From: a virus
Virus genome (UHGV): UHGV-1373565
DNA: 46,060 nt
Direction: 5' to 3' (one strand)
Shown here: positions 7,566-46,060 of the stretch, in pieces
Layout of the letters: the number at the start of each line of letters is the position of its first letter
Position numbering within the stretch: the first letter of the stretch is position 1
Position numbers and translations under genes: made by a program
The notes under the pieces: generated by a model
Database searches by the model: none
Told to the model about the DNA's origin: nothing
Seen by the model: the letters and a program-made list of their open reading frames with translations, nothing else

Positions 7566-7587
7566 CCGTACTAGTTAGCTAGTACGG
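7566..7587 (+). terminator. Hairpin B (ccgtactag-ttag-ctagtacgg), 9-bp perfect stem, immediately after palindrome A at 7544-7561. Candidate terminator or RNase III site.
   Basis: Perfect inverted repeat; the same element recurs at 38932-38956, 45801-45822 and 45871-45892. Confidence 0.5.
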
Positions 7588-28738: not shown

Positions 28739-28972
28739 TTGATTCATGAGAAAGTAGGAGAGGTTGCAGCTGAAGCATTTAAGGCCACGCCACCAACAGT
28801 GGTTGTTGGCCTCAACATCTTAGGCTACTCAATCTCTGAGTGGGTTCAGGTAGCTACACTTATCTACATCTTCTTACAGATGCATGTGTTGGCTGTTAAA
28901 AATATAAGTTCATATAAGTCCATGTGGGATTATATTAAGGAGGTTATTTGTGGCAAGCGTAAGCAAGAGTAA
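28739..28972 (+). CDS. Putative holin (class II-like, TTG start).
   Basis: Two hydrophobic segments (VVVGLNILGYSI; VQVATLIYIFLQMHVLAV); charged C-terminus; ggagg RBS; same position as T7 gp17.5. Confidence 0.5.
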   Translation: MIHEKVGEVAAEAFKATPPTVVVGLNILGYSISEWVQVATLIYIFLQMHVLAVKNISSYKSMWDYIKEVICGKRKQE

Positions 28973-29279
28973 TAAGAATTCAGCCACAGAGGATGATGTG
29001 GGTCTTATCCATAAGCTTGTTACTAAGGTCATTACTAAGAAGCTTGAGAAGTGGTTAAAGCTTATTGAGCAAGGTGGTGATGTAGACTTGGTTGTAGATA
29101 TGAAACAGCTTAAGTCTGCCATTGACTGGTGTGACAAGAATGGCATCGTATGTGCTGACCCAGCTGAACAAAGTGATAATGAACTTGGTGATAAGCTTTC
29201 TGAGATTCGTAAGGCTCAACATGCTCGTGGTGTAGTTGTTCCATTCAAAGAAGATGATGAGGAGGGCTATGGAACATGA
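28950..29279 (+). CDS. Terminase small subunit (GTG start).
   Basis: aaggagg RBS; size and position immediately upstream of the large terminase. Confidence 0.5.
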   Translation: MASVSKSNKNSATEDDVGLIHKLVTKVITKKLEKWLKLIEQGGDVDLVVDMKQLKSAIDWCDKNGIVCADPAEQSDNELGDKLSEIRKAQHARGVVVPFKEDDEEGYGT

Positions 29280-31126
29280 GGCGTGTTAACAGGAACGACA
29301 AGAAGGCACAGTTAGAAATGTGGGAGGAGCTTGAAGCGATACAGAAAGCTTTCCCCTTCACTGTGCAAGGCTTGTGGCTGTTTGCCTCACTTGTGCTTGA
29401 GAAGACTATCGTAGGCTCTCCTCACCTTAATCGCACACAGAAAGATATTCTGAGCTTCCTGCTTAACGGCGGGAAGTATATAGGCATACAGGCAAGCCGT
29501 GGCATGACCAAGACAGTTATGGCAGCTATCCTATGCTGCTTCTGCCTTATTCACATGCCGCACTACCGTATCATTGTATTCTCACAGAATGGCAAGCGAG
29601 CTAAGGAGATTGCAGGTTGGGTAGTTAAAATCTTCTATGCTATCGACATCCTTGAGGTGCTACAGCCAGATACCTATGCTGGCGACCGCTCCTCTATTGA
29701 AGCTTTTGATATTCATTGGTGTTTCCGTGGTGCTGATAAGTCACCATCAGTTACTTGCTACTCTATTGAGTCTGGTGCTCAGGGTGCTCGTGCTGACCTT
29801 ATCCTTGCTGATGATATTGAGTCACTTCAAAACTCCCGTACAGCTCAGAGTCGTGAGTGGTTGCTTGAGCAGTCATTAGAGTTTGAGTCAATCAACCAGT
29901 ACGGTCGTATTATCTACCTAGGCACACCTCAGGGTGTTGAGTCTATCTATAACACACTCCCAGCTCGTGGTTACGTTATGCGTATCTGGCCGGGCCGCTA
30001 TCCAACAGCTGAGCAGCTTGAGTTTTATGGAAATGCTCTGGCTCCCTTATTCCGTAAGGATATTGAAGCTGACCCAAGCTTGCAAAGTGGCGGTGGGCTT
30101 GATGGTACTATGGGCAAGCCAACAACACCTGCTATGTATGATGAGGGGTTGTTGCAAGAGAAGGAGATGAGGCAAGGTCTTGCTAAGTTCATGTTGCAGT
30201 TCATGGTTCATACTGGTATGTCTGACCGTGACCGCTTCAAGCTTAAGCTAGAGAATCTTGTACTCATGAACTTCAATGCCATGCAAGGTGCTGTTATGCC
30301 TGTGTGGAACAGCGACCAGCGTAGCATGTGGCAAGCTGCACCTCGCTTTGGTACACGTCCACAAGACAGATTTTACTTTGCCATGCAGCAGCCATACATC
30401 ATGCGTGACTTCGACTTAACTGTTATGTTCATTGACCCAGCTGGCGGTGGCTCTCGCTCACAGGATGAGATGGGTTATGCTATAACTAAGCTGTTAGGTA
30501 CTTATGTCTACATATATGATGTTGATGGTGTCAAGGGCGGTTATGAGCAATCAGAGCTGATGAAGCTTGTGCAAGCTGCTAAGGATGCTAAGGTCAACGT
30601 TTGCTATGTGGAAAAGAACTATGGTAACGGTGCTCACTTTGCAATGCTCAAGCCACTGTTTGAGAAGTTCTATCCGGAGTGTAGGCTAGAGGAGATTAAC
30701 TCCTCAGGTCAAAAGGAACTACGTATCATTGATACACTGGAGCCACTGTTAGGTCAGCATCGCTTGGTAGTCTCACAGACATCGGTGATGAAGGACTACA
30801 ACAGCATTCAGAAGTACCCAGCAGAGGTCAAGATGACTTACAGCTGCTTCTACCAACTTGCTCACATAACGAGCGACCGTGGGGCGCTTAGGCATGATGA
30901 CCGCTTAGACGCGCTGGCTGGGGCTGTGGCGCAGATTGTCAACTACATCGACTATGACCAAGAGAAAGCCGAGAAAGAGCGGCAGGCAGAGGCTGACAAG
31001 CATTTCTTTGAGGTTATGGCTAACCCCAATGGATTCGTTCACACGATGATGCATGGTGGTGATTTTATGAGCTATGTTGAGCAACAAAACACCGGAGCCA
31101 ACGCCCTCAAGAAATACTTTAATTAA
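29276..31126 (+). CDS. Terminase large subunit (gp19-like).
   Basis: Walker A-like GIQASRGMTKT; 616 aa; acidic nuclease-domain residues. Confidence 0.85.
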   Translation: MRRVNRNDKKAQLEMWEELEAIQKAFPFTVQGLWLFASLVLEKTIVGSPHLNRTQKDILSFLLNGGKYIGIQASRGMTKTVMAAILCCFCLIHMPHYRIIVFSQNGKRAKEIAGWVVKIFYAIDILEVLQPDTYAGDRSSIEAFDIHWCFRGADKSPSVTCYSIESGAQGARADLILADDIESLQNSRTAQSREWLLEQSLEFESINQYGRIIYLGTPQGVESIYNTLPARGYVMRIWPGRYPTAEQLEFYGNALAPLFRKDIEADPSLQSGGGLDGTMGKPTTPAMYDEGLLQEKEMRQGLAKFMLQFMVHTGMSDRDRFKLKLENLVLMNFNAMQGAVMPVWNSDQRSMWQAAPRFGTRPQDRFYFAMQQPYIMRDFDLTVMFIDPAGGGSRSQDEMGYAITKLLGTYVYIYDVDGVKGGYEQSELMKLVQAAKDAKVNVCYVEKNYGNGAHFAMLKPLFEKFYPECRLEEINSSGQKELRIIDTLEPLLGQHRLVVSQTSVMKDYNSIQKYPAEVKMTYSCFYQLAHITSDRGALRHDDRLDALAGAVAQIVNYIDYDQEKAEKERQAEADKHFFEVMANPNGFVHTMMHGGDFMSYVEQQNTGANALKKYFN

Positions 31127-36318: not shown

Positions 36319-38265
36319 ATGGCTTTAACAAGGCTTACATCACCTACTCGCTCATTTGATACAATACAGCAAGCCATTTCTTATGGCCCTAAATTTAGAG
36401 TTGGTGACAGGATCTTTATATATGGTGAGGAAGGTGTATCTTTCGATTATAAGGTTGGGTCTTATTTAGTAGATAATGGAACAGTATTTCAGGCAGGCTC
36501 AGGTTATCTAGTAAGATCATTTGAAGGTGCTGCTAGATCTTCTTGGTTCTCATCATGGTCAGGTCTGGTTACTTACATGTCATTACCGGGAAGATCTCTT
36601 ATTGTGGACAATGAAGTTAAGGCAACATCTGTTATGTACTTAAAATCTTTATCATCCCTTAAGTTCACACCATCAGGTGTTATTGTACCAAATGACACAC
36701 CCTCTCAAGTTATTAATATCTTAGGTACAGAGCCAACAGCTTTCTCAAGTCTTGCTGGGGATATGAAGGCAAGCAGTGCGCTTGTAACATTCAGTGATAG
36801 CGTTGGTATTGTAGCAGGTGATAACGTAGTAATTAAATCTGACAGACCTTGTGACGGTGGCCCTAACTCTTATGGCGTAAGAGCCTCAGTCCTAAGGACG
36901 GTTCTGGCAACAACTTCATCTGGCGGTATTACAACTGCACTATTAGACCAGACAGTGCACTATACATTCCTTGTTTCAGAGAATGCTGTTATTGGCAAAT
37001 ATTACCCAGTTAGTGATGTTGAGCTTGTTGATGTTAAGATAAATAAACAAGCTAATGTAACTACACTATTTACACTTGGTATATCAATGCAGTATTGCAA
37101 CAATATCAAGATCAAGGGTGGTGTACTTCAAGGTAGTAAGCCAGCTGGCACAGGTGATATAACAGGTAGATCAGCTATCAAGTTTAATAACTGCCGTAAC
37201 TCTTTTGTTGATGGAACTCATTTCTACTCTATTGGTTGGTACGGGGTAGAGGTACTTGGGGCTTCAGAGGATATACAGGTTAATAGGATTAAGGCGTGGG
37301 ATGTACGACACGCTATTAGTCTTAACTGGCAGACTACAACAGATGGCCCTAAGTGGGGTGAGCCTATCACATTTAAGGCGAAGGACTGCATTGCTTATAA
37401 CACTGTTCAATCCGGGTTTGATACACATGATATTGGTAAGCGTATCCAGTTTATCAACTGCATTTCATATGATGCTGGTGATGACGGGTTCCAAGCCAGA
37501 ACAAATGGTGTTGAATATATAGGATGTAAGGCATATAGACCTAAGCTAGATGGGTTTGCATCTAATACCGGTGTAGCTTTCCCTATTTATAGGGGATGTG
37601 TAGCATACAATGCACCACGAGCAGGCTTCAATACATCTTATGGCGGAGGTTATATATATGACTGTGAAGCACACTTCTGTGCAGAGGGTGTAAGGACTAA
37701 TGGTGGAATTGTAGAGGGTGGCAGATACACTAATATATCTAAGGCTGAAATCTTTATAACTAAAGATGTTTCAGGGACTCAGCAGCTTCCTCTTGTTATT
37801 AGAGATGTAGGTTTGAAGTATGATGGCAATGGGAGGGCTATATATTTCCATGGGACAATGGGAATTGACCCAACATTAGTGACTATTGAAGGCTGCGACA
37901 TGACAGGTCATGGATTGGCTTGGGCACTTTTGTCTGGATACTCAACACAGCCAACACCACCTAGAATGAGTAGGAATATACTAGATGATGTCAATGTTCG
38001 TGGCGTAGCTACTTTAGTAGCTGGTACTGCAACTGTAAATGCTAGGGTTCGTGGACAATTTAGTTCTAATGCTAACTCATTCAAGTGGGTATCTGAGATT
38101 AAACTTACAAGGCTTACATACCCAAGTACTGCTGGCCATATTTCTGTTACGGCAGTTACTCAAGATGCAAGTGTACCAACACCTAACCCAGACTTAAACT
38201 CTTTCACTATAAAGAGTTCTAATTCGGCAGATGTTTCACAAATTATGTGGGAGATATTCCTCTAA
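36319..38265 (+). CDS. Tailspike protein 2 with a right-handed beta-helix (pectate-lyase-like) depolymerase domain (648 aa).
   Basis: Periodic G/N/V-rich beta-helix repeats (NNIKIKGGVLQG...NCRNSFVDGTHF...); AT-richer codon usage than tailspike 1. Confidence 0.6.
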   Translation: MALTRLTSPTRSFDTIQQAISYGPKFRVGDRIFIYGEEGVSFDYKVGSYLVDNGTVFQAGSGYLVRSFEGAARSSWFSSWSGLVTYMSLPGRSLIVDNEVKATSVMYLKSLSSLKFTPSGVIVPNDTPSQVINILGTEPTAFSSLAGDMKASSALVTFSDSVGIVAGDNVVIKSDRPCDGGPNSYGVRASVLRTVLATTSSGGITTALLDQTVHYTFLVSENAVIGKYYPVSDVELVDVKINKQANVTTLFTLGISMQYCNNIKIKGGVLQGSKPAGTGDITGRSAIKFNNCRNSFVDGTHFYSIGWYGVEVLGASEDIQVNRIKAWDVRHAISLNWQTTTDGPKWGEPITFKAKDCIAYNTVQSGFDTHDIGKRIQFINCISYDAGDDGFQARTNGVEYIGCKAYRPKLDGFASNTGVAFPIYRGCVAYNAPRAGFNTSYGGGYIYDCEAHFCAEGVRTNGGIVEGGRYTNISKAEIFITKDVSGTQQLPLVIRDVGLKYDGNGRAIYFHGTMGIDPTLVTIEGCDMTGHGLAWALLSGYSTQPTPPRMSRNILDDVNVRGVATLVAGTATVNARVRGQFSSNANSFKWVSEIKLTRLTYPSTAGHISVTAVTQDASVPTPNPDLNSFTIKSSNSADVSQIMWEIFL

Positions 38266-38273
38266 AGGTAATT

Positions 38274-38429
38274 ATGCCACTTATCAAATCATTAAGTAAG
38301 AAAGCAGTTCAGCAGAACACAGCTGAGCTTATCGCAAGTGGTAGGCCAGCTGAACAAGCTTATGCTATTGCTAAAGATGTACAAAGAGATGCTAGGAAGC
38401 TTAAGAAGCCTTCTGGTGTTAAATCGTAA
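38274..38429 (+). CDS. Possible small basic protein (51 aa).
   Basis: ORF only; weak. Confidence 0.2.
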   Translation: MPLIKSLSKKAVQQNTAELIASGRPAEQAYAIAKDVQRDARKLKKPSGVKS

Positions 38430-39234
38430 CCAATTGGCAGCTTGCTAGGTAGTTAGAGTAAGCTGCTGTTAACTGGAGTAAGCTATGAGAATTAATGCAC
38501 ACAGTCTTTCATATCTACATCGTAAGTATAAGAGAGGGTATGTAGAAGGTTAAGTAAGCTAGCTAGGTAGCCATTAGTGGTTACTGTAAGCTGGCCTTGA
38601 AACTAAAATTAGGTTGGGCAGCTACAGCAGTTCCCGCCGCCGCCAGCTTCAGCTTTCCCCCCATCGGGGTGGCTGACTGGCACCTCTTAGGCCGCAGGCA
38701 GTTAGAGGGGGGGGTGGGTAGGCTGGCTCAGGCTGGCTAGGTAGCTGGCATCAGCTTGCATCAGTTAGCGTAAGTCATTGATGTTGCACTCGCTTGCTAG
38801 TACATGAGATCACTCTACGTGAAATCTGGCTAGCTTGCGTGGGCTATCAAGCTGCTAATTCAAGCTGGTGCATCAGCTGTACTCGTGTGCTAGTGCGCTG
38901 ACAGTGGCTGATTGGCAAGCTGCTAGGTGGCTTGTACTAGTCAGCTAGTACGTTGTGTGCTGCTGGGTGTATCTGTCTTTAGTCTTATGGGTTAACCAAC
39001 CACAGCTTGCAGTAACTCACTAGCAGCTTATTGGGTAGCTCATAGGTAGCTTACAAGGCTCAAAGCTTGCTGGTACTACTGATGGCTTACTAGGTAGCTT
39101 ACTATCACTGACTAGGTAGCTACTGTTAGTTCACTAGGTAGCTAGCTATGGCTGACTAGGTAGTTACTAGGTGGATTGATGTAAGCTTACTCAAGCTCTC
39201 TTAGTGCATCATTCGATGCACAATATAAGAAGAA

Positions 39235-39258
39235 TAAGACACTACAATAAGAATAGAG
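39235..39258 (+). promoter_or_regulatory. Weak phage-promoter-like site (taagacactacaataagaatagag), preceded by hairpin gtgcatc-attc-gatgcac.
   Basis: Core ACTACAATA conserved; flanks divergent. Confidence 0.4.
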
Positions 39259-39288
39259 TACGCCTTGCCAATAGCTCTCATCAGCTAC

Positions 39289-39318
39289 TTGCAACAGCCT
39301 ACTCAGCCTACGTATAAC
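39289..39318 (+). promoter_or_regulatory. Sigma70-type promoter (TTGCAA-N18-TATAAC).
   Basis: -35 and -10 hexamers with 18-bp spacing, upstream of the early genes. Confidence 0.5.
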
Positions 39319-39418
39319 CACTAGGTAGCTGCTTGTAGCTATGGTCGGCTGACTAGGTAGCTTTAGTCAGTCTAGTGCACTAGATTAAGCTAATGTGAGC
39401 TACATCACTAAAATGGTG

Positions 39419-39447
39419 TTGACTAGGTAGCTCACTGTAGGTATAGT
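39419..39447 (+). promoter_or_regulatory. Strong sigma70-type promoter (TTGACT-N17-TATAGT); its -35 is provided by an ACTAGGTAGCT repeat unit.
   Basis: Near-consensus hexamers with 17-bp spacing; about 370-nt untranslated leader before the first early ORF. Confidence 0.6.
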
Positions 39448-39817
39448 TACTTACATCAAGACGAAGCAGCGATGCAAAGTAGCTTGATGAGCAGTAAGCT
39501 TACAGAACGCTAATCAGCTCAAGTATGTAAGAGTAGTTAAGTGTAAGGACTCCGCTAGATGAAACAGGCTAGGGTCGATTGAGCAAGGGTCGCTAAATCC
39601 TTCTCCATACATTACGATGATATGGCTACACTGTGAACTACATCGCTCTTTAACAATATGGATAGGAAGTTGAATAGAGCTGATGAAAGCTCTTGTGACC
39701 GCTCAAGCGGTGCTAATTAACCTAAGAAGCTCAGCTAGTGCTAGACACACCAGAAAGGTGCTGAGCAGCTTATTAAGGTGAGCTTGATAGACTAACCACA
39801 ACCAATAGGTAGCTATC

Positions 39818-39991
39818 ATGGAGAGAGAAGTAATTGAGGGTACATTAGTACAATACAAAGATAACTATGGTTATCGTGTTTGGGGTAAGGTTACTCAGCA
39901 TTACACATCAGCTATGGGCTATGAGTGTGTAGAGCTTACTAATGGCGCTAGATTAAAAGTCTCTGATATACTTAAAGTTAAGTATCCATAA
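39818..39991 (+). CDS. First early ORF (57 aa), unknown function.
   Basis: ORF downstream of the host-type promoters; weak RBS. Confidence 0.35.
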   Translation: MEREVIEGTLVQYKDNYGYRVWGKVTQHYTSAMGYECVELTNGARLKVSDILKVKYP

Positions 39992-40375
39992 CAAGGCTAG
40001 CCAGCAGCTTGCTGGCAGTCTATCAAGCTTGCTTTCAACTGGAGATAGTATTATGAAACTGATTGGTAAAGGTGCATTTACTAAAGCTTACTTGCTTGAT
40101 AGCGGTAGGGTATAGATATTGGATTTGAGATAAGCCCACGTAACATCTAGGTTGTTACTGGTGGATACCTGATACTAGCTGATTGCTTCTTTCATCACCC
40201 TGCACTGACTAAAGTCAGAAGCAAGAAGTAGCAAACTAGCAGCCATTAGCTAATAGTGGCTGCAATGATTGTTGCTAACTAACTGGAGAAGTTAACATGT
40301 GGTTACTTTATCTTAATGTAGGCTTAGTTGTTACACTAGGTACTATCGGTTATCGCTTATTCTGAGGGCTAACTA

Positions 40376-40564
40376 ATGACTTATTTATTTATAGCCGCTT
40401 GCGGTTGGCTGACATTTATCTACAAAGTTCGCCGTGACTTTCTGAGGGCACATAAGCGCTACCTCATTACGAAGAAGGGCGACATCTGGACTGTGCGAGA
40501 CAAGCGAGGTCGCTTTGTAACACTCACTGATAACTACTGGGACATCTGCAAACTAGGGGCTTGA
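40376..40564 (+). CDS. Early hypothetical protein (62 aa) with N-terminal hydrophobic segment.
   Basis: gaggg RBS; ORF track. Confidence 0.45.
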   Translation: MTYLFIAACGWLTFIYKVRRDFLRAHKRYLITKKGDIWTVRDKRGRFVTLTDNYWDICKLGA

Positions 40565-42410: not shown

Positions 42411-45044
42411 ATGTACACTAGCGATGAGCTTTACCAGAAACAACTTGAGCTAGAAGGGGAAATGCACGGCTATGGTGTTACTCGCTTTGACCGTAACAAC
42501 CAACGTGCAATTGATAGCGGTACACCTTCAGACACTGATTGGAACCGCCGTTTACTTTCTAACTTCATTGAGCCTATGGTGAAGGGTATCAATGCTTATA
42601 AGGAGTATTACAAGACTAAAGCTGGACGGCCTACGGTGGCTTTAAAGTACATTCGTCAGGTGCAGCCAGAGCAAGCAGCTTACATTGCCATTAAGAATAT
42701 CCTTGATGTGCTGGGGAGTACCACATTTGATGCTAACTGGCTTGTTACCACTATTGGGCGTCGTATAGAGGATCAAGTGAGATTCACTAAGCTTGAGGAG
42801 GCTGCCCCTAAGTATGTTGGCAAGGTTAAGGATAGCTTAGCTAAGCGTAATTCACTACAGTATGCACACCAGCATAAAGTGCTGGTAGCTACTGAGAAGA
42901 AACTAGCTGAGAATCCAGAACGTGCGCAGCTTGAGTTACCACGCTGGCAAGAATGGGCGGAGGAGGATTGCAAGCACGTTGGTAGCTTGCTGGTCAATAT
43001 CTTTGAGCAGTGCATTTTGTTTGAAGGTGAGCCAGTAATCCGTAAGGAGGTGCAGACAGTTCGCAAAGGTACATTGGTTTTCATCAAGCCCACTGAGAAA
43101 GTTACCAAGTGGATTCATGAGTTCAGAGAGGCTATTGGTGGGCTTGCTCCGGCTTATGCACCTTGCGTAGTTCCTCCACTTGATTGGACTTCCCCATTTA
43201 CTGGCGGGTTCCATACGGAAGCTGTTAGCAGCACTCTGCATCTTGCTAAGGTTCGCAATAAGCGCCACTTGCGTAAGCTGACTAAAGAGCAGATGCCAGC
43301 AGTTTATAAGGCTGTAAACAATTTGCAGAAAGTACGCTGGCGTATCTCTGAGCGTGTGCTTGCAACTGCTAACACGCTTGTAGAGCTGGGCTTGCCTTAT
43401 GCGCTCCCTTCTAAGGATGAAAGTGATTGGAAAGAGAAGAATCCATGCCCTGTGCCTGAGTATCTGCAAGACCTGCGAGGCGAGCAGCTAAAAGCGGCGC
43501 TTACTGCCAGTCAGTGGGAAGCGTTTCAGGAGTGGAAACAGTTGGCACGTCAGAACTACGACGAGGAGAGTGAGCGCGTAGCAAGCTTTAGGGAAGTTGT
43601 ACGTACCTTAGGGCAAGCTAACCGCTACGTTGGATTTGATGCAATCTACTTTGTGTACACGCTGGACTTTCGCGGACGTGTCTACTGCCAGAGTAGCCTT
43701 GTAAGCCCACAGGGTGGCGACTTGCAGAAAGCTCTCATCAAGTTTGCTGATGGAATGAAGCTGGGCGAGCGTGGTGAATACTGGTTTAAGGTGCATGGTG
43801 CTAACGAGTGGGGGTGGGATAAAAAGGAGTTTGACGAGCGCGTAGCCCTTGTAAGTGAGCCTGAATTCTGCGAGATGTGCCTAGACATTGCAAGTGACCC
43901 TGTGACCTTCAATGACTGGATTAAAGCTGATAAGCCGTGGCAGTTCCTCAACTGGTGCTTTGAGTATGCTGACTTTCTGAAGCATGTGCAATCAGGTGGC
44001 AACCCACAGGACTTTGTAAGCTACATCCCGTGTGCGATGGATGGTTCTTGCTCTGGTATTCAACATTATAGTGCCATGCTGCGTGATACAGTTGGTGGTG
44101 CTGCTGTTAACTTGGTTAACTCTGACAAGCCTAATGACATCTACGGGGAAGTCTGCAAGGTTGCTATTAAGGAGCTGCAAGCAATTGCTGATGGCTCACA
44201 GGTCTATGATGGCAAGATTGACCCTGTACTAGCTCAGCAGCTGGCGCAGGAGTGGCTGCGTCTGCAACCAAATCGCAGCCTAACTAAGAAGCCTGTTATG
44301 ACCCTGCCTTACGGCAGCACTCAGTTAACTTGCCGTGAGCATGTTAGCCAGTGGCTGAAAGATTTGCAGAAGGAGGAGAATAAGCGAGCTAAGGCAGAGT
44401 TTAGGGAGCCTATGAAGGTACACGCTTTTGGTGATGCTGATAGTGCAATGCCGCTAAAGTTTGCTGAGTCACTTATGACTAGCATTGTGTGGCACTCTAT
44501 CGGTAAGGTTGTAGTAGCTGCGAGGGCTGGTATGGCTTACATCAAAGCCGTCACAAGCTCAGTGGCTAAGATGAATATGCCGCTTGAGTGGACTACTCCA
44601 ACAGGCTTTATTGTCCGTCAGGAGATTTACCAGTTCACAACACGTCAGGTAAACACTCAGCTGCTGGGTGGTACTAAGTTTGTAGTCAGCACTAAGAGTA
44701 AGGATATTGATTATCATCGCATGATTAACTCTTGCGCACCTAACTTTGTTCACTCAATGGATGCGAGCCACCTTACACTGGCAACTAACTACTTTGCAGA
44801 TGCAGGTATTAGCAGCATTGCAGTAATCCATGATAGCTTTGGCACACATGCAGGAGCTACTGACCTGCTGCGTGAGCGTCTGCGAGCTTCAATGGTGGAT
44901 ATGTACGAACAGCATGATGTTATCACTAACTTCCTTGCTGAAACTGAGGGCAGACTTATGACAGCTTTTGAGCACATTCGTGTGCCAGAGCGTGGTGAGC
45001 TGCAACTTGATAGCATTAATCAAAGTACGTATGCTTTTGCTTAA
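42411..45044 (+). CDS. Single-subunit DNA-dependent RNA polymerase (T7 gp1-like), 877 aa.
   Basis: Length; conserved segments such as ...PCVVPP..., ...YGSTQ..., IHDSFGTHA (motif C) and the C-terminal ...AFA; nine cognate promoters are present in the window. Confidence 0.95.
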   Translation: MYTSDELYQKQLELEGEMHGYGVTRFDRNNQRAIDSGTPSDTDWNRRLLSNFIEPMVKGINAYKEYYKTKAGRPTVALKYIRQVQPEQAAYIAIKNILDVLGSTTFDANWLVTTIGRRIEDQVRFTKLEEAAPKYVGKVKDSLAKRNSLQYAHQHKVLVATEKKLAENPERAQLELPRWQEWAEEDCKHVGSLLVNIFEQCILFEGEPVIRKEVQTVRKGTLVFIKPTEKVTKWIHEFREAIGGLAPAYAPCVVPPLDWTSPFTGGFHTEAVSSTLHLAKVRNKRHLRKLTKEQMPAVYKAVNNLQKVRWRISERVLATANTLVELGLPYALPSKDESDWKEKNPCPVPEYLQDLRGEQLKAALTASQWEAFQEWKQLARQNYDEESERVASFREVVRTLGQANRYVGFDAIYFVYTLDFRGRVYCQSSLVSPQGGDLQKALIKFADGMKLGERGEYWFKVHGANEWGWDKKEFDERVALVSEPEFCEMCLDIASDPVTFNDWIKADKPWQFLNWCFEYADFLKHVQSGGNPQDFVSYIPCAMDGSCSGIQHYSAMLRDTVGGAAVNLVNSDKPNDIYGEVCKVAIKELQAIADGSQVYDGKIDPVLAQQLAQEWLRLQPNRSLTKKPVMTLPYGSTQLTCREHVSQWLKDLQKEENKRAKAEFREPMKVHAFGDADSAMPLKFAESLMTSIVWHSIGKVVVAARAGMAYIKAVTSSVAKMNMPLEWTTPTGFIVRQEIYQFTTRQVNTQLLGGTKFVVSTKSKDIDYHRMINSCAPNFVHSMDASHLTLATNYFADAGISSIAVIHDSFGTHAGATDLLRERLRASMVDMYEQHDVITNFLAETEGRLMTAFEHIRVPERGELQLDSINQSTYAFA

Positions 45045-45533: not shown

Positions 45534-45742
45534 AACTGGTATTAGTCTTAGGACTTGCTGATGGTCGTGTGATTGAATGGGCTGATGATGCTGCACCTAA
45601 GTTTGTTAAGCCACCTGTCAACCGTGAAGGTGTTACGCAAACTTATAGCCTTGTAGGCTTCGTAGGTAATGAGGCTTACTACATCCCTGAGCACACTACA
45701 GCAGCTCAGGCAATCAAACTTCTAGCAGAAAGGGCAAGCTAA
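45530..45742 (+). CDS. Hypothetical protein (70 aa).
   Basis: ATGA overlap with the HNH stop; followed by a terminator. Confidence 0.4.
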   Translation: MKLVLVLGLADGRVIEWADDAAPKFVKPPVNREGVTQTYSLVGFVGNEAYYIPEHTTAAQAIKLLAERAS

Positions 45743-45752
45743 TAACAACGAC

Positions 45753-45786
45753 AGGCAGCTACTTAGGTGGCTGCCTTTTCTTTTAT
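45753..45786 (+). terminator. Rho-independent terminator (aggcagctac-ttag-gtggctgcct + tttcttttat). Analogue of the T7 early terminator TE.
   Basis: 9/10-bp stem followed by a T-tract. Confidence 0.75.
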
Positions 45787-45800
45787 CTGGCTTGTACTAG

Positions 45801-45892
45801 TTATCTAGTACAAATTTACTTGATAATAATTATCATTAACTCAGTCTAGTATACTAGACTAGACCGAGTCGTACTAGTTGGCTAGTACAACA
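45801..45892. repeat. Cluster of three CTAGTAC elements. Hairpin B (45801-45822, ttgtactag-ttat-ctagtacaa); perfect 18-bp palindrome A (45848-45865, agtctagtatactagact); hairpin B (45871-45892).
   Basis: Direct reading; same composite A+B arrangement as at 7544-7587. Confidence 0.65.
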
Positions 45893-45961
45893 GGCGTTCC
45901 TACGTGAAATCTGAGAAAGTTTGCGGGCAATTGTCCGTCAGAATTTAAAATTTTCTGAAAA

Positions 45962-45984
45962 TAATTAGGCGCTACAATAGGGAG
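45962..45984 (+). promoter_or_regulatory. Phage RNAP promoter (taattaggcgctacaatagggag) reading directly into the 10-mer tandem array.
   Basis: Consensus match; T7-like GGGAG initiation region. Confidence 0.75.
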
Positions 45985-45987
45985 CCC

Positions 45988-46060
45988 AGTAAGCTATAAT
46001 AGTAAGCTATAGTAAGCTATAGTAAGCTATAGTAAGCTATAGTAAGCTATAGTAAGCTAT
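45988..46060. repeat. Tandem AGTAAGCTAT array (7 copies, with a 3-nt aat insertion after the first), reaching the window edge.
   Basis: Direct reading; identical unit to 1-90. Confidence 0.95.

Follow-up and report, generated by a model that had tools for sequence, protein, structure and literature searches.

What is the role of 1.4 kb of gene-free DNA lying between the tailspike end of a T7-like phage map and its early genes? The question is raised by positions 38430–39817 of the virus genome UHGV-1373565, a stretch of 46,060 nucleotides (nt) that is referred to here as the window. We propose that this region is the junction of both ends of a T7-type chromosome, comprising the concatemer junction and the left-end control region, and put the probability of this reading at roughly 0.8. 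With similar confidence we place the ends and the terminal repeat at the positions given below to within a few nucleotides, and our confidence that they lie somewhere within the region is higher still. All readings of ends, promoters and leader were obtained by comparing a single assembled sequence with its relatives.

The window is evidently the complete, circularly permuted genome of a Gajwadongvirus (Autographiviridae), a T7-like Klebsiella phage; the genus was assigned via relatives retrieved by sequence match. The Klebsiella phage RCIP0053 is 94.8% identical to the region, and its other close relatives here are Roth32, RCIP0089, vB_Kp_Z1 (Z1 below), MR4, JSF38, ECBP5 and PP99. The region had been described, in a sequence-only reading of the window, as free of open reading frames (ORFs), and indeed no ORF of 60 amino acids (aa) or more overlaps 38430–40375 in any frame.

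Predicted chromosome ends and terminal repeat

The elements on which the placing of the ends depends are the following.

38430–38632, plus strand: unique non-coding DNA after the stop of the last gene (38429), the predicted genome right end, adjoining the terminal repeat in the concatemer
38633–38970, unstranded: predicted direct terminal repeat of ~338 bp, with its left end at 38633 ± 2 and its right boundary between 38970 and 38971, projected from relatives
38633–38669, plus strand: left-end signature CCCGCCGCCGCC...CCCCCCATCGGGG
38971–38984, plus strand: ATCTGTCTTTAGTC, a predicted class II-like pause signal for the phage RNA polymerase, directly after the repeat
39030–39176, plus strand: array of short repeats, (A/G)GGTAGCT or ACTAGGTAGCT, with four copies at 39089, 39111, 39133 and 39155 in a 22-nt phase and more at 39320, 39352 and 39422

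The sequence-only reading had remarked on an odd GC-rich patch. The patch is real, with a GC content of 0.64 at 38625–38774 against about 0.40–0.45 around it, and it corresponds to the left-end signature. It aligns with the first 30–40 nt of the terminal repeats of Nufs112, Era103, T7, SP6 and K1-ULIP33, the left end of the last being taken from the end of its record. Inside the patch, at 38657, lies the single occurrence in the whole window of the motif CCCC(C)ATNGGGG, which starts 26 nt from the left end in T7, 29 in SP6, 28 in Era103, 25 in Nufs112 and 27 in K1-ULIP33. The bases before it, CCCGCCGCCGCC, align with CCTGCCTGCC of Nufs112 and TTCTGCCTGCC of Era103. On the other side of the predicted cut, about 19–30 nt before it, a junction alignment with Nufs112, Reminis, 6939 and ECBP5 reveals a conserved AAAAT(T)AGGT block.

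The right boundary is marked in a similar way. Directly after every reference repeat (T7, SP6, Nufs112 and Era103) stands (A)TCTGT or ATCTAT; the run of bases is ATCTGTTACAG after nt 160 in T7, (A)TCTGTTCG after nt 173–174 in SP6, ATCTATCCC after nt 277 in Era103 and ATCTGTCTTTAGTC after nt 410 in Nufs112. The window has ATCTGTCTTTAGTC at 38971, identical to the post-repeat sequence of Nufs112. The reference lengths themselves come from exact matching of the record ends for T7 (160 bp) and SP6 (174 bp). The 410-bp repeat of Nufs112, a Pantoea phage (OK570185), has experimentally verified ends (PMC9915841) and is annotated at 1–410 and 45542–45951. For Era103 an exact-match test of the record ends returned 0 nt, the two copies not being identical as tested, and we therefore used the annotated length of 277 bp.

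These observations can be condensed into a two-boundary rule, in which CCCC(C)ATNGGGG lies about 25–29 nt from the left end and ATCTGT follows immediately after the repeat. The rule returns repeats of 410, 377, 160 and 174 bp exactly or within 1 nt. The 377-bp case is Reminis, for which the rule is exact and for which PMC9915841 relays the same length as reported by its authors. Rule positions also agree with the re-orientation coordinates in that paper, coinciding at 39417 for Reminis and differing slightly for 6939 (5997 versus 6000). Applied to ECBP5 and Z1, the rule predicts repeats of ~459 bp and ~520 bp respectively. Each relative examined has kept both boundary motifs. Between these conserved edges the repeat is hypervariable among relatives, with insertions of 200–250 nt; an indel hotspot lies mid-repeat at 38823–38876, where RCIP0053, RCIP0089 and Z1 carry 200–250 extra nt.

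In the window the repeat sits between the post-tailspike gene (stop at 38429) and the host promoter at 39419. It is present only once in the assembly, and we infer that the assembler collapsed two copies into one. The start and the stop of the window both fall inside one tandem array of a 10-mer, ATAGTAAGCT, with a 60-nt overlap. Because the two window ends share this array, we regard them as a place where the contig was cut at a repeat by the assembler and not as a biological end. The sequence-only reading had taken the window for a rotated map with the packaged-DNA termini and a direct terminal repeat inside the present region; both proposals are supported by the comparison with relatives of known ends.

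Two records were considered as further references for the ends and set aside. Z1 has a 127-nt exact end overlap, which we read as an assembler k-mer overlap, its paper being silent on termini; the first base of its record lies 11 nt inside the predicted left end, at best a coincidence. The PP99 record lacks a repeat and starts in the middle of the predicted one, and its paper reports no PP99 ends.

In T7, ATCTGTT is the core of the class II sequence-specific pause and termination signal of the RNA polymerase, and its only natural copy lies at the concatemer junction. The consensus is a strict ATCTGTT preceded by A, C or T; the junction 7-mer here is ATCTGTC, preceded by T, and this variant is conserved in Nufs112 and across the genus. 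The position of ATCTGT at the right repeat edge is conserved in phages of four groups, and on concatemers the phage polymerase may accordingly stall there. According to T7 work by Lyakhov, Zhang and Studier, such a stall is probably coupled to concatemer processing and packaging.

Short repeats on one strand flank the predicted ends. The core TAGGTAG occurs 12 times on the plus strand of the window, 12 of 12 inside this 3% of the sequence, and is absent from the minus strand of the region. The longer form ACTAGGTAGCT has six exact copies, all in the region; allowing one mismatch there are 10, nine in the region and one outside it at 7570, a total reached by none of 100 shuffles (mean 2.1, maximum 8). 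The array of about 12 copies noticed in the sequence-only reading is thus real, with the number holding for the core and only 6 exact copies, or 9 within one mismatch, for ACTAGGTAGCT. Motifs of the TAGGTAGCT type, all on the plus strand, lie before the repeat (38446 and 38564, both as TAGGTAG), inside it (38738) and after it (39043–39168, 39322, 39354 and 39424). Independently, Tandem Repeats Finder (TRF) returned a 22-nt-period array at 39089–39169, and the array is conserved in 10 relatives.

Comparable repeats, restricted to the plus strand, are found at the ends of other phages: CCTAAAG 11 times in T7, CTTAGTG seven times in SP6, CTTATGG and GCTAGGC in Era103, and GGTAGCT in Nufs112, Reminis and 6939. 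When each phage was searched on the minus strand for its own motif, none was found. Because every reference end has its own plus-strand-only motif, the analogy with the short repeats of T7 is correct and general. We know of no established function for such end-flanking repeats, T7 included. The 22-nt phasing, equivalent to two helical turns, and the strand bias would fit a directional DNA–protein interaction, for example binding of the small terminase. A likeness of TAGGTAGC to the ops element (GGCGGTAGCGTG) was rejected, since the two agree at no more than 6 of 12 positions and the majority of the copies precede the host promoter.

The predicted early promoter and its transcript

The elements to the right of the repeat are arranged as follows.

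39204–39221, plus strand: hairpin GTGCATC-ATTC-GATGCAC, just upstream of the phage promoter-like site
39235–39255, plus strand: weak promoter-like site for the phage RNA polymerase, a member of the phage promoter family, placed as phiOL is in T7 (13.2 bits, tenth in the genome)
39289–39318, plus strand: proposed second sigma70 promoter, TTGCAA-18-TATAAC, weak and failing the scan
39371–39384, unstranded: 14-bp perfect palindrome TCTAGTGCACTAGA, one of a six-member family in the genome
39419–39447, plus strand: predicted main host sigma70 early promoter, TTGACT-17-TATAGT, scoring 10 of 12 in the scan, with the start at an A at ~39455
39463–39640, plus strand: predicted structured 5′ leader RNA of ~180 nt, from RNAalifold and covariation
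39466–39475: small hairpin within this leader
39500–39530: hairpin with an AAUC loop
39534–39640: three-hairpin domain closed by a long-range helix, ending 4 nt before boxA
39645–39655, plus strand: boxA (GCTCTTTAACA), a predicted NusB/NusE site for anti-termination, matching GYTCTTTAANA perfectly
39656–39817, plus strand: 3′ leader, with predicted hairpins at 39676–39693, 39699–39710 and 39729–39766
39804–39814, plus strand: ribosome-binding region AATAGGTAGCT of the first early gene, which is also the last short-repeat copy

The sequence-only reading had described two good sigma70 promoters with a palindrome between them, several repeat copies supplying TTGACT −35 boxes, a weak phage promoter and a leader of about 370 nt. 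Of the two promoters, that at 39419 stands and is the only plus-strand site in the region to pass the sigma70 scan. Ten of 11 sequences conserve this promoter, along with the A-tract upstream and the start region TACTTACATCAAGACGA. The site at 39289 was discarded: it is not conserved, most relatives having TATGGC or TGTGGC as the −10 box and ECBP5 a different segment altogether. Nor do several repeat copies provide TTGACT; one copy does, and three others give CTGACT. The palindrome was recovered between the two sites as TCTAGTGCACTAGA, the phage promoter as the weak site at 39235, and the leader at ~365 nt, from the start near 39455 to the ATG at 39818.

The 39419 promoter resembles T7 A1 (TTGACT...GATACT TACAGCC ATCGAGAGG) and, because the likeness runs through the first transcribed bases, the start was placed at the A near 39455. 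Its −35 box lies 786 nt from the predicted left end; in T7, A1–A3 lie at 498–750. According to the Molineux laboratory, transcription-independent entry of T7 DNA into the cell stops after the first ~850 bp; the 39419 promoter would lie within this limit.

Scored with a weight matrix for phage promoters, the 39235 site reaches 13 bits, compared with 34–47 bits for eight strong copies and a background of −55 ± 13. Its core is conserved in all relatives, and the hairpin just upstream is identical in 11 of 11 aligned sequences. The counterpart in T7, phiOL, is at 405, upstream of A1 at 498. With the same matrix no phiOR-like phage promoter was found just before the repeat, in 38430–39000. The palindrome belongs to a family of ~16-bp palindromes (AGTCTAGTACACTAGACT) at 186, 3021, 7545, 35118, 39370 and 45844, often just upstream of phage promoters. 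Its TCTAG/CTAGA arms are constant in closer relatives (changed in DT115P1) and its central 4 nt vary. A hairpin is one possibility, as is a site for a dimeric protein, such as the operator suggested by the sequence-only reading.

The first part of the predicted transcript is a structured domain. In a 10-sequence alignment RNAalifold gave 40 pairs in nine helices, 25 of them with compensatory double changes. Controls support the pairing: 96.9% of cells were paired, compared with 31–41% when the partners were slid, and the 25 double-change pairs compare with 13.1 ± 1.9 in shuffles (reached in 0 of 500) and 1–8 when slid. A search of Rfam 15 with 38200–40400, on both strands and at E ≤ 1, returned no match. 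The 3′ part of the leader, 39656–39817, is 95–99% identical in close relatives and offers no usable covariation; a putative RNase III site considered there was set aside for this reason and for the fold z of only −1.6.

Conservation of the leader stretch extends beyond the genus, to KL01, Reminis, the Era103 group and the F4M1D/K1-ULIP33 group, and its 5′ half is also present in the 76-kb Kuravirus phages Bas89 and MN03. A covariance model of the leader found full copies only in relatives that share the stretch and none in T7 or SP6; Nufs112 scored 74 bits versus 215. A pattern scan for leader homologues in viral contigs was abandoned, 21 of its 24 matches being chance.

The leader is modular. 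ECBP5, PP99, JSF38 and RCIP0089 carry other cassettes in the same place; the breakpoints are the transcription start (39464) and a point immediately downstream of boxA (39660). In two near-identical relatives, Roth32 and a metagenome contig (IMGVR_UViG_3300045988_027210, identical to ERZ791615 NODE-242), a clean natural deletion of ~177 nt has taken out the middle of the leader including boxA, with the join between two GCTCAAG microhomologies (39530 to 39707 in the window). In the Kuravirus phages Bas89 and MN03 the shared module (1100–1420) lies downstream of a strong sigma70 promoter (TTGACA-17-TATAGT in Bas89), in a ~1-kb non-coding gap upstream of the genes leading to the terminase. An unrelated phage group thus seems to use the module in a comparable role, at the head of a host RNA polymerase transcript. 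It is possible, if on balance doubtful, that the domain at 39463–39640, 5′ of boxA, represents an undescribed class of cis-acting phage RNA. Such an RNA might work with the Nus/boxA machinery, or protect or organize the 5′ end of early transcripts made by the host polymerase, and would move as a cassette, with the same breakpoints, among podophages of unrelated lineages, namely several genera of Autographiviridae and the 76-kb Kuravirus group.

boxA lies 190 nt downstream of the predicted start, and GYTCTTTAANA is the gamma-proteobacterial boxA consensus. T7 carries the same boxA sequence at 813, upstream of gene 0.3. The anti-termination role of boxA in T7 is established, and Gp2 is no longer required once the element is mutated (Savalia et al., 2010, as cited in PMC3709561).

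Many related phages have two or three copies of boxA (GCTCTTTAACAA) in their early regions, every one on the plus strand: at 656, 926 and 1536 in SP6, at 1138, 1421 and 2102 in Nufs112, at 2126, 2431 and 3046 in F4M1D, and also in three further relatives. These copies are flanked by inverted repeats around single small genes, in the order boxA-TGGCTAGTGT ... gene ... GGCACTAGCC-AA-boxA, an arrangement that recalls the RNase III stem around 16S rRNA and suggests exchangeable gene cassettes bounded by boxA. In the window a perfect 13-nt inverted repeat (AGCTTGATAGACT / AGTCTATCAAGCT) at 39781–39793 and 40017–40029 brackets the first early gene, and, once transcribed, its two arms would pair into a long-range stem enclosing that cistron.

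Alternative readings of the region

Several observations weigh against the placing of the ends or against the parts assigned to the elements between them. The predicted left end varies with the anchor used, from 38631 to 38635, and 38633 ± 2 is the value adopted. No deposited Gajwadongvirus record has the repeat at both ends, and among viral and metagenome sequences scanned for contigs stopping at the predicted left end the sole hits were PP99 itself and a single read-through contig. The end positions come from sequence comparison and not from physical mapping. As to the pause signal, the seventh base is C and not T, and termination by T7 RNA polymerase is reportedly abolished by any change in the 7-mer. 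ATCTGT occurs 12 times on the plus strand of the window, about 11 being expected (46060/4096); because its frequency is near chance, we count only its position as evidence. Sigma70-like sites are not enriched in the region (5 versus 6.2 ± 2.5 in shuffles). Single-sequence fold energies for the leader are not significant (z = −0.58, and z = −1.6 for 39656–39817). Finally, several close relatives lack the structured leader and boxA or have other sequence in their place, and for that reason both must be dispensable.

The first of these points bears on a reading in which ends and repeat do lie in the region but at other boundaries, with a shorter or longer repeat or a cut shifted by tens of nucleotides. 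The several-nucleotide ambiguity of the left-end anchor, the 200–250-nt insertions in the hypervariable middle of the predicted repeat and the deviation of the boundary 7-mer from the T7 consensus would all be compatible with such a shift. Conservation of both boundary motifs throughout the relatives examined, and the accuracy with which the rule reproduces the four reference lengths, argue for the boundaries as given, and we allow only a small chance of a shift on that scale. That the physical ends lie instead in the ATAGTAAGCT array, leaving 38430–39817 as an internal regulatory region, is very improbable. The contig does start and stop in the array with an overlap, and some phages have tandem repeats near their ends; however, a tandem array is a typical break site for an assembler, the end signature is absent from it, and it lies downstream of the RNA polymerase gene and upstream of the primase-helicase, whereas the ends of Nufs112, Era103, SP6 and T7 are upstream of the early genes and not after the polymerase gene.

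Headful packaging of circularly permuted DNA without fixed ends, with the region serving only as a promoter or origin region, would account for an assembly that behaves as a circle and for the deposition of several relatives as circular or arbitrarily permuted records. Against it stand the T7-type terminase of this phage, the grouping of the Nufs112 TerL with T7-type packagers that generate short direct terminal repeats (PMC9915841) and the conservation of the end signatures, and we give this reading hardly any credence. Nor do we think it at all likely that the region codes for small proteins, as the hypothetical proteins annotated in Z1, Roth32 and MR4 would have it. Short coding sequences, 3–11 of them, are annotated under the match in relatives, and 12 ORFs of at least 25 aa (25–51 aa) overlap the region. 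But none of the seven ORFs tested of these 12 matched a PHROG family, although both flanking small genes do, and the annotations are inconsistent among records, RCIP0053 and RCIP0089 annotating nothing there. Moreover, the stretch 39463–39640 varies by paired compensatory changes, the pattern of an RNA and not of codons, and a putative ATG within it is not conserved.

On the preferred reading, a junction of two chromosome ends, the virion DNA would be linear with a ~338-bp direct terminal repeat (38633 ± 2 to 38970), and the assembler would have merged its two copies and cut the resulting circle in the 10-mer array. The left end would enter the host first, and host RNA polymerase would initiate at the single strong sigma70 promoter at 39419–39447, ~790 nt from the end, and run rightwards, with the weak phage promoter at 39235 occupying the phiOL position. 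The transcript would begin with the ~180-nt structured leader followed by boxA, which, by analogy with T7 and rrn operons, may load NusB/NusE, so that transcription through the early genes as far as the phage RNA polymerase gene (42411–45044) would resist termination. Late in infection the T7-type terminase would cut concatemers at sites marked by CCCGCC...CCCCCCATCGGGG and by ATCTGT at the repeat's right-hand boundary, a point at which stalling of the phage RNA polymerase would be expected by comparison with the T7 concatemer junction. The least certain step concerns the TAGGTAGCT repeats flanking the terminal repeat, presumably the counterpart of the T7 CCTAAAG arrays, which probably bind a packaging or ejection protein.

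The genome and its known counterparts

The genes that bear on this account are as follows; the window contains no tRNAs.

537–2555: primase-helicase
28950–29279: gp18-like small terminase (PF11123 DNA_Packaging_2)
29276–31126: T7-type large terminase (PF22530 Terminase-T7_RNaseH-like, E = 2e-34)
36319–38265: K1-capsule lyase tailspike
38247–38429: 60-aa ORF after the tailspike, the last gene before the right end (phrog_2423 match)
39818–39991: first early gene (phrog_14219 match)
42411–45044: single-subunit RNA polymerase gene

The sequence-only reading had put a second tailspike at the right end of the map. A tailspike is indeed near that end; the last gene is the 60-aa ORF at 38247–38429.

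A second large non-coding region, 45743–46060 continuing into 1–536, lies after the RNA polymerase and early genes and before the primase-helicase. It contains, in order, GTACTAGT...CTAGTAC palindromes, a CTACGTGAAATCTG block, a strong phage promoter (45965), the ATAGTAAGCT array, with at least 15 collapsed copies, a palindrome (186) and a phage promoter (209). The CTACGTGAAATCTG block recurs inside the terminal repeat, where 38783–38828 resembles 45868–45913. The position of this second region presumably matches that of the T7 primary replication origin.

A region of this kind would be expected by a specialist in any T7-like phage; the ends had not previously been placed in this genus, no deposited genome of which is oriented on its true ends or annotates a terminal repeat. 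The novelty is modest. It consists of a prediction of the ends to a few nucleotides for a genus without a correctly oriented record, a simple boundary rule borne out by the reference phages on which it was tried, and a leader RNA supported by covariation, without an Rfam match and common to an unrelated podophage group, which we consider only a moderately novel element. The two-boundary rule offers a testable prediction of the ends, to a few nucleotides, for this phage and its relatives, including the Klebsiella K1-specific phages considered for therapy, and correct ends matter for annotation, engineering and the quality control of phage preparations. A distant genus would share the T7 scheme of early transcription, with an A1-like promoter in the first ~0.8 kb and boxA after it. 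The leader RNA is a cheap experimental target for asking how lytic phages make the host RNA polymerase processive.

Element by element, the region appears to match the left end and concatemer junction of T7 and the mapped ends of Nufs112. The sequence-only reading had likened the layout to the T7 left end, and the order of elements is the same, at similar distances from the end: CCCCCATNGGGGG near nt 26, a repeat followed by ATCTGT, short repeats on the plus strand only, a phage promoter, a host promoter, boxA and the first gene. The two differ in the length of the terminal repeat (~338 bp here, 160 bp in T7), in the repeat motif (TAGGTAGCT here, CCTAAAG in T7), in the number of strong host promoters (one here, three, A1–A3, in T7) and in the boundary 7-mer, ATCTGTC here. 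Between promoter and boxA the window also has the ~180-nt structured RNA, for which the covariance model finds in T7 only a match at E = 0.08, mostly boxA. Like the T7 class II signal, the predicted pause site has its ATCTGT core on the non-template strand, precisely where the terminal repeat ends on the right; unlike it, the seventh base is C where T7 has T, and the cognate polymerase is only distantly related to T7 RNA polymerase. boxA itself is of the rrn and T7 type, GCTCTTTAACA being an exact match to the consensus in the leader of a predicted host RNA polymerase transcript, as in T7. The structured domain upstream of it has no counterpart in the rrn leader or T7, and boxA is absent from several close relatives here.

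The closest phage with mapped ends is Nufs112. Its likeness to the window covers the left-end signature, the ATCTGTCTTTAGTC that follows the repeat, GGTAGCT repeats, repeat-internal GTACTAG palindromes, boxA and the first part of the leader. Nufs112 is of a different genus, has the longer repeat (410 bp) and carries boxA three times in its early region, and its leader is without the three-hairpin domain.

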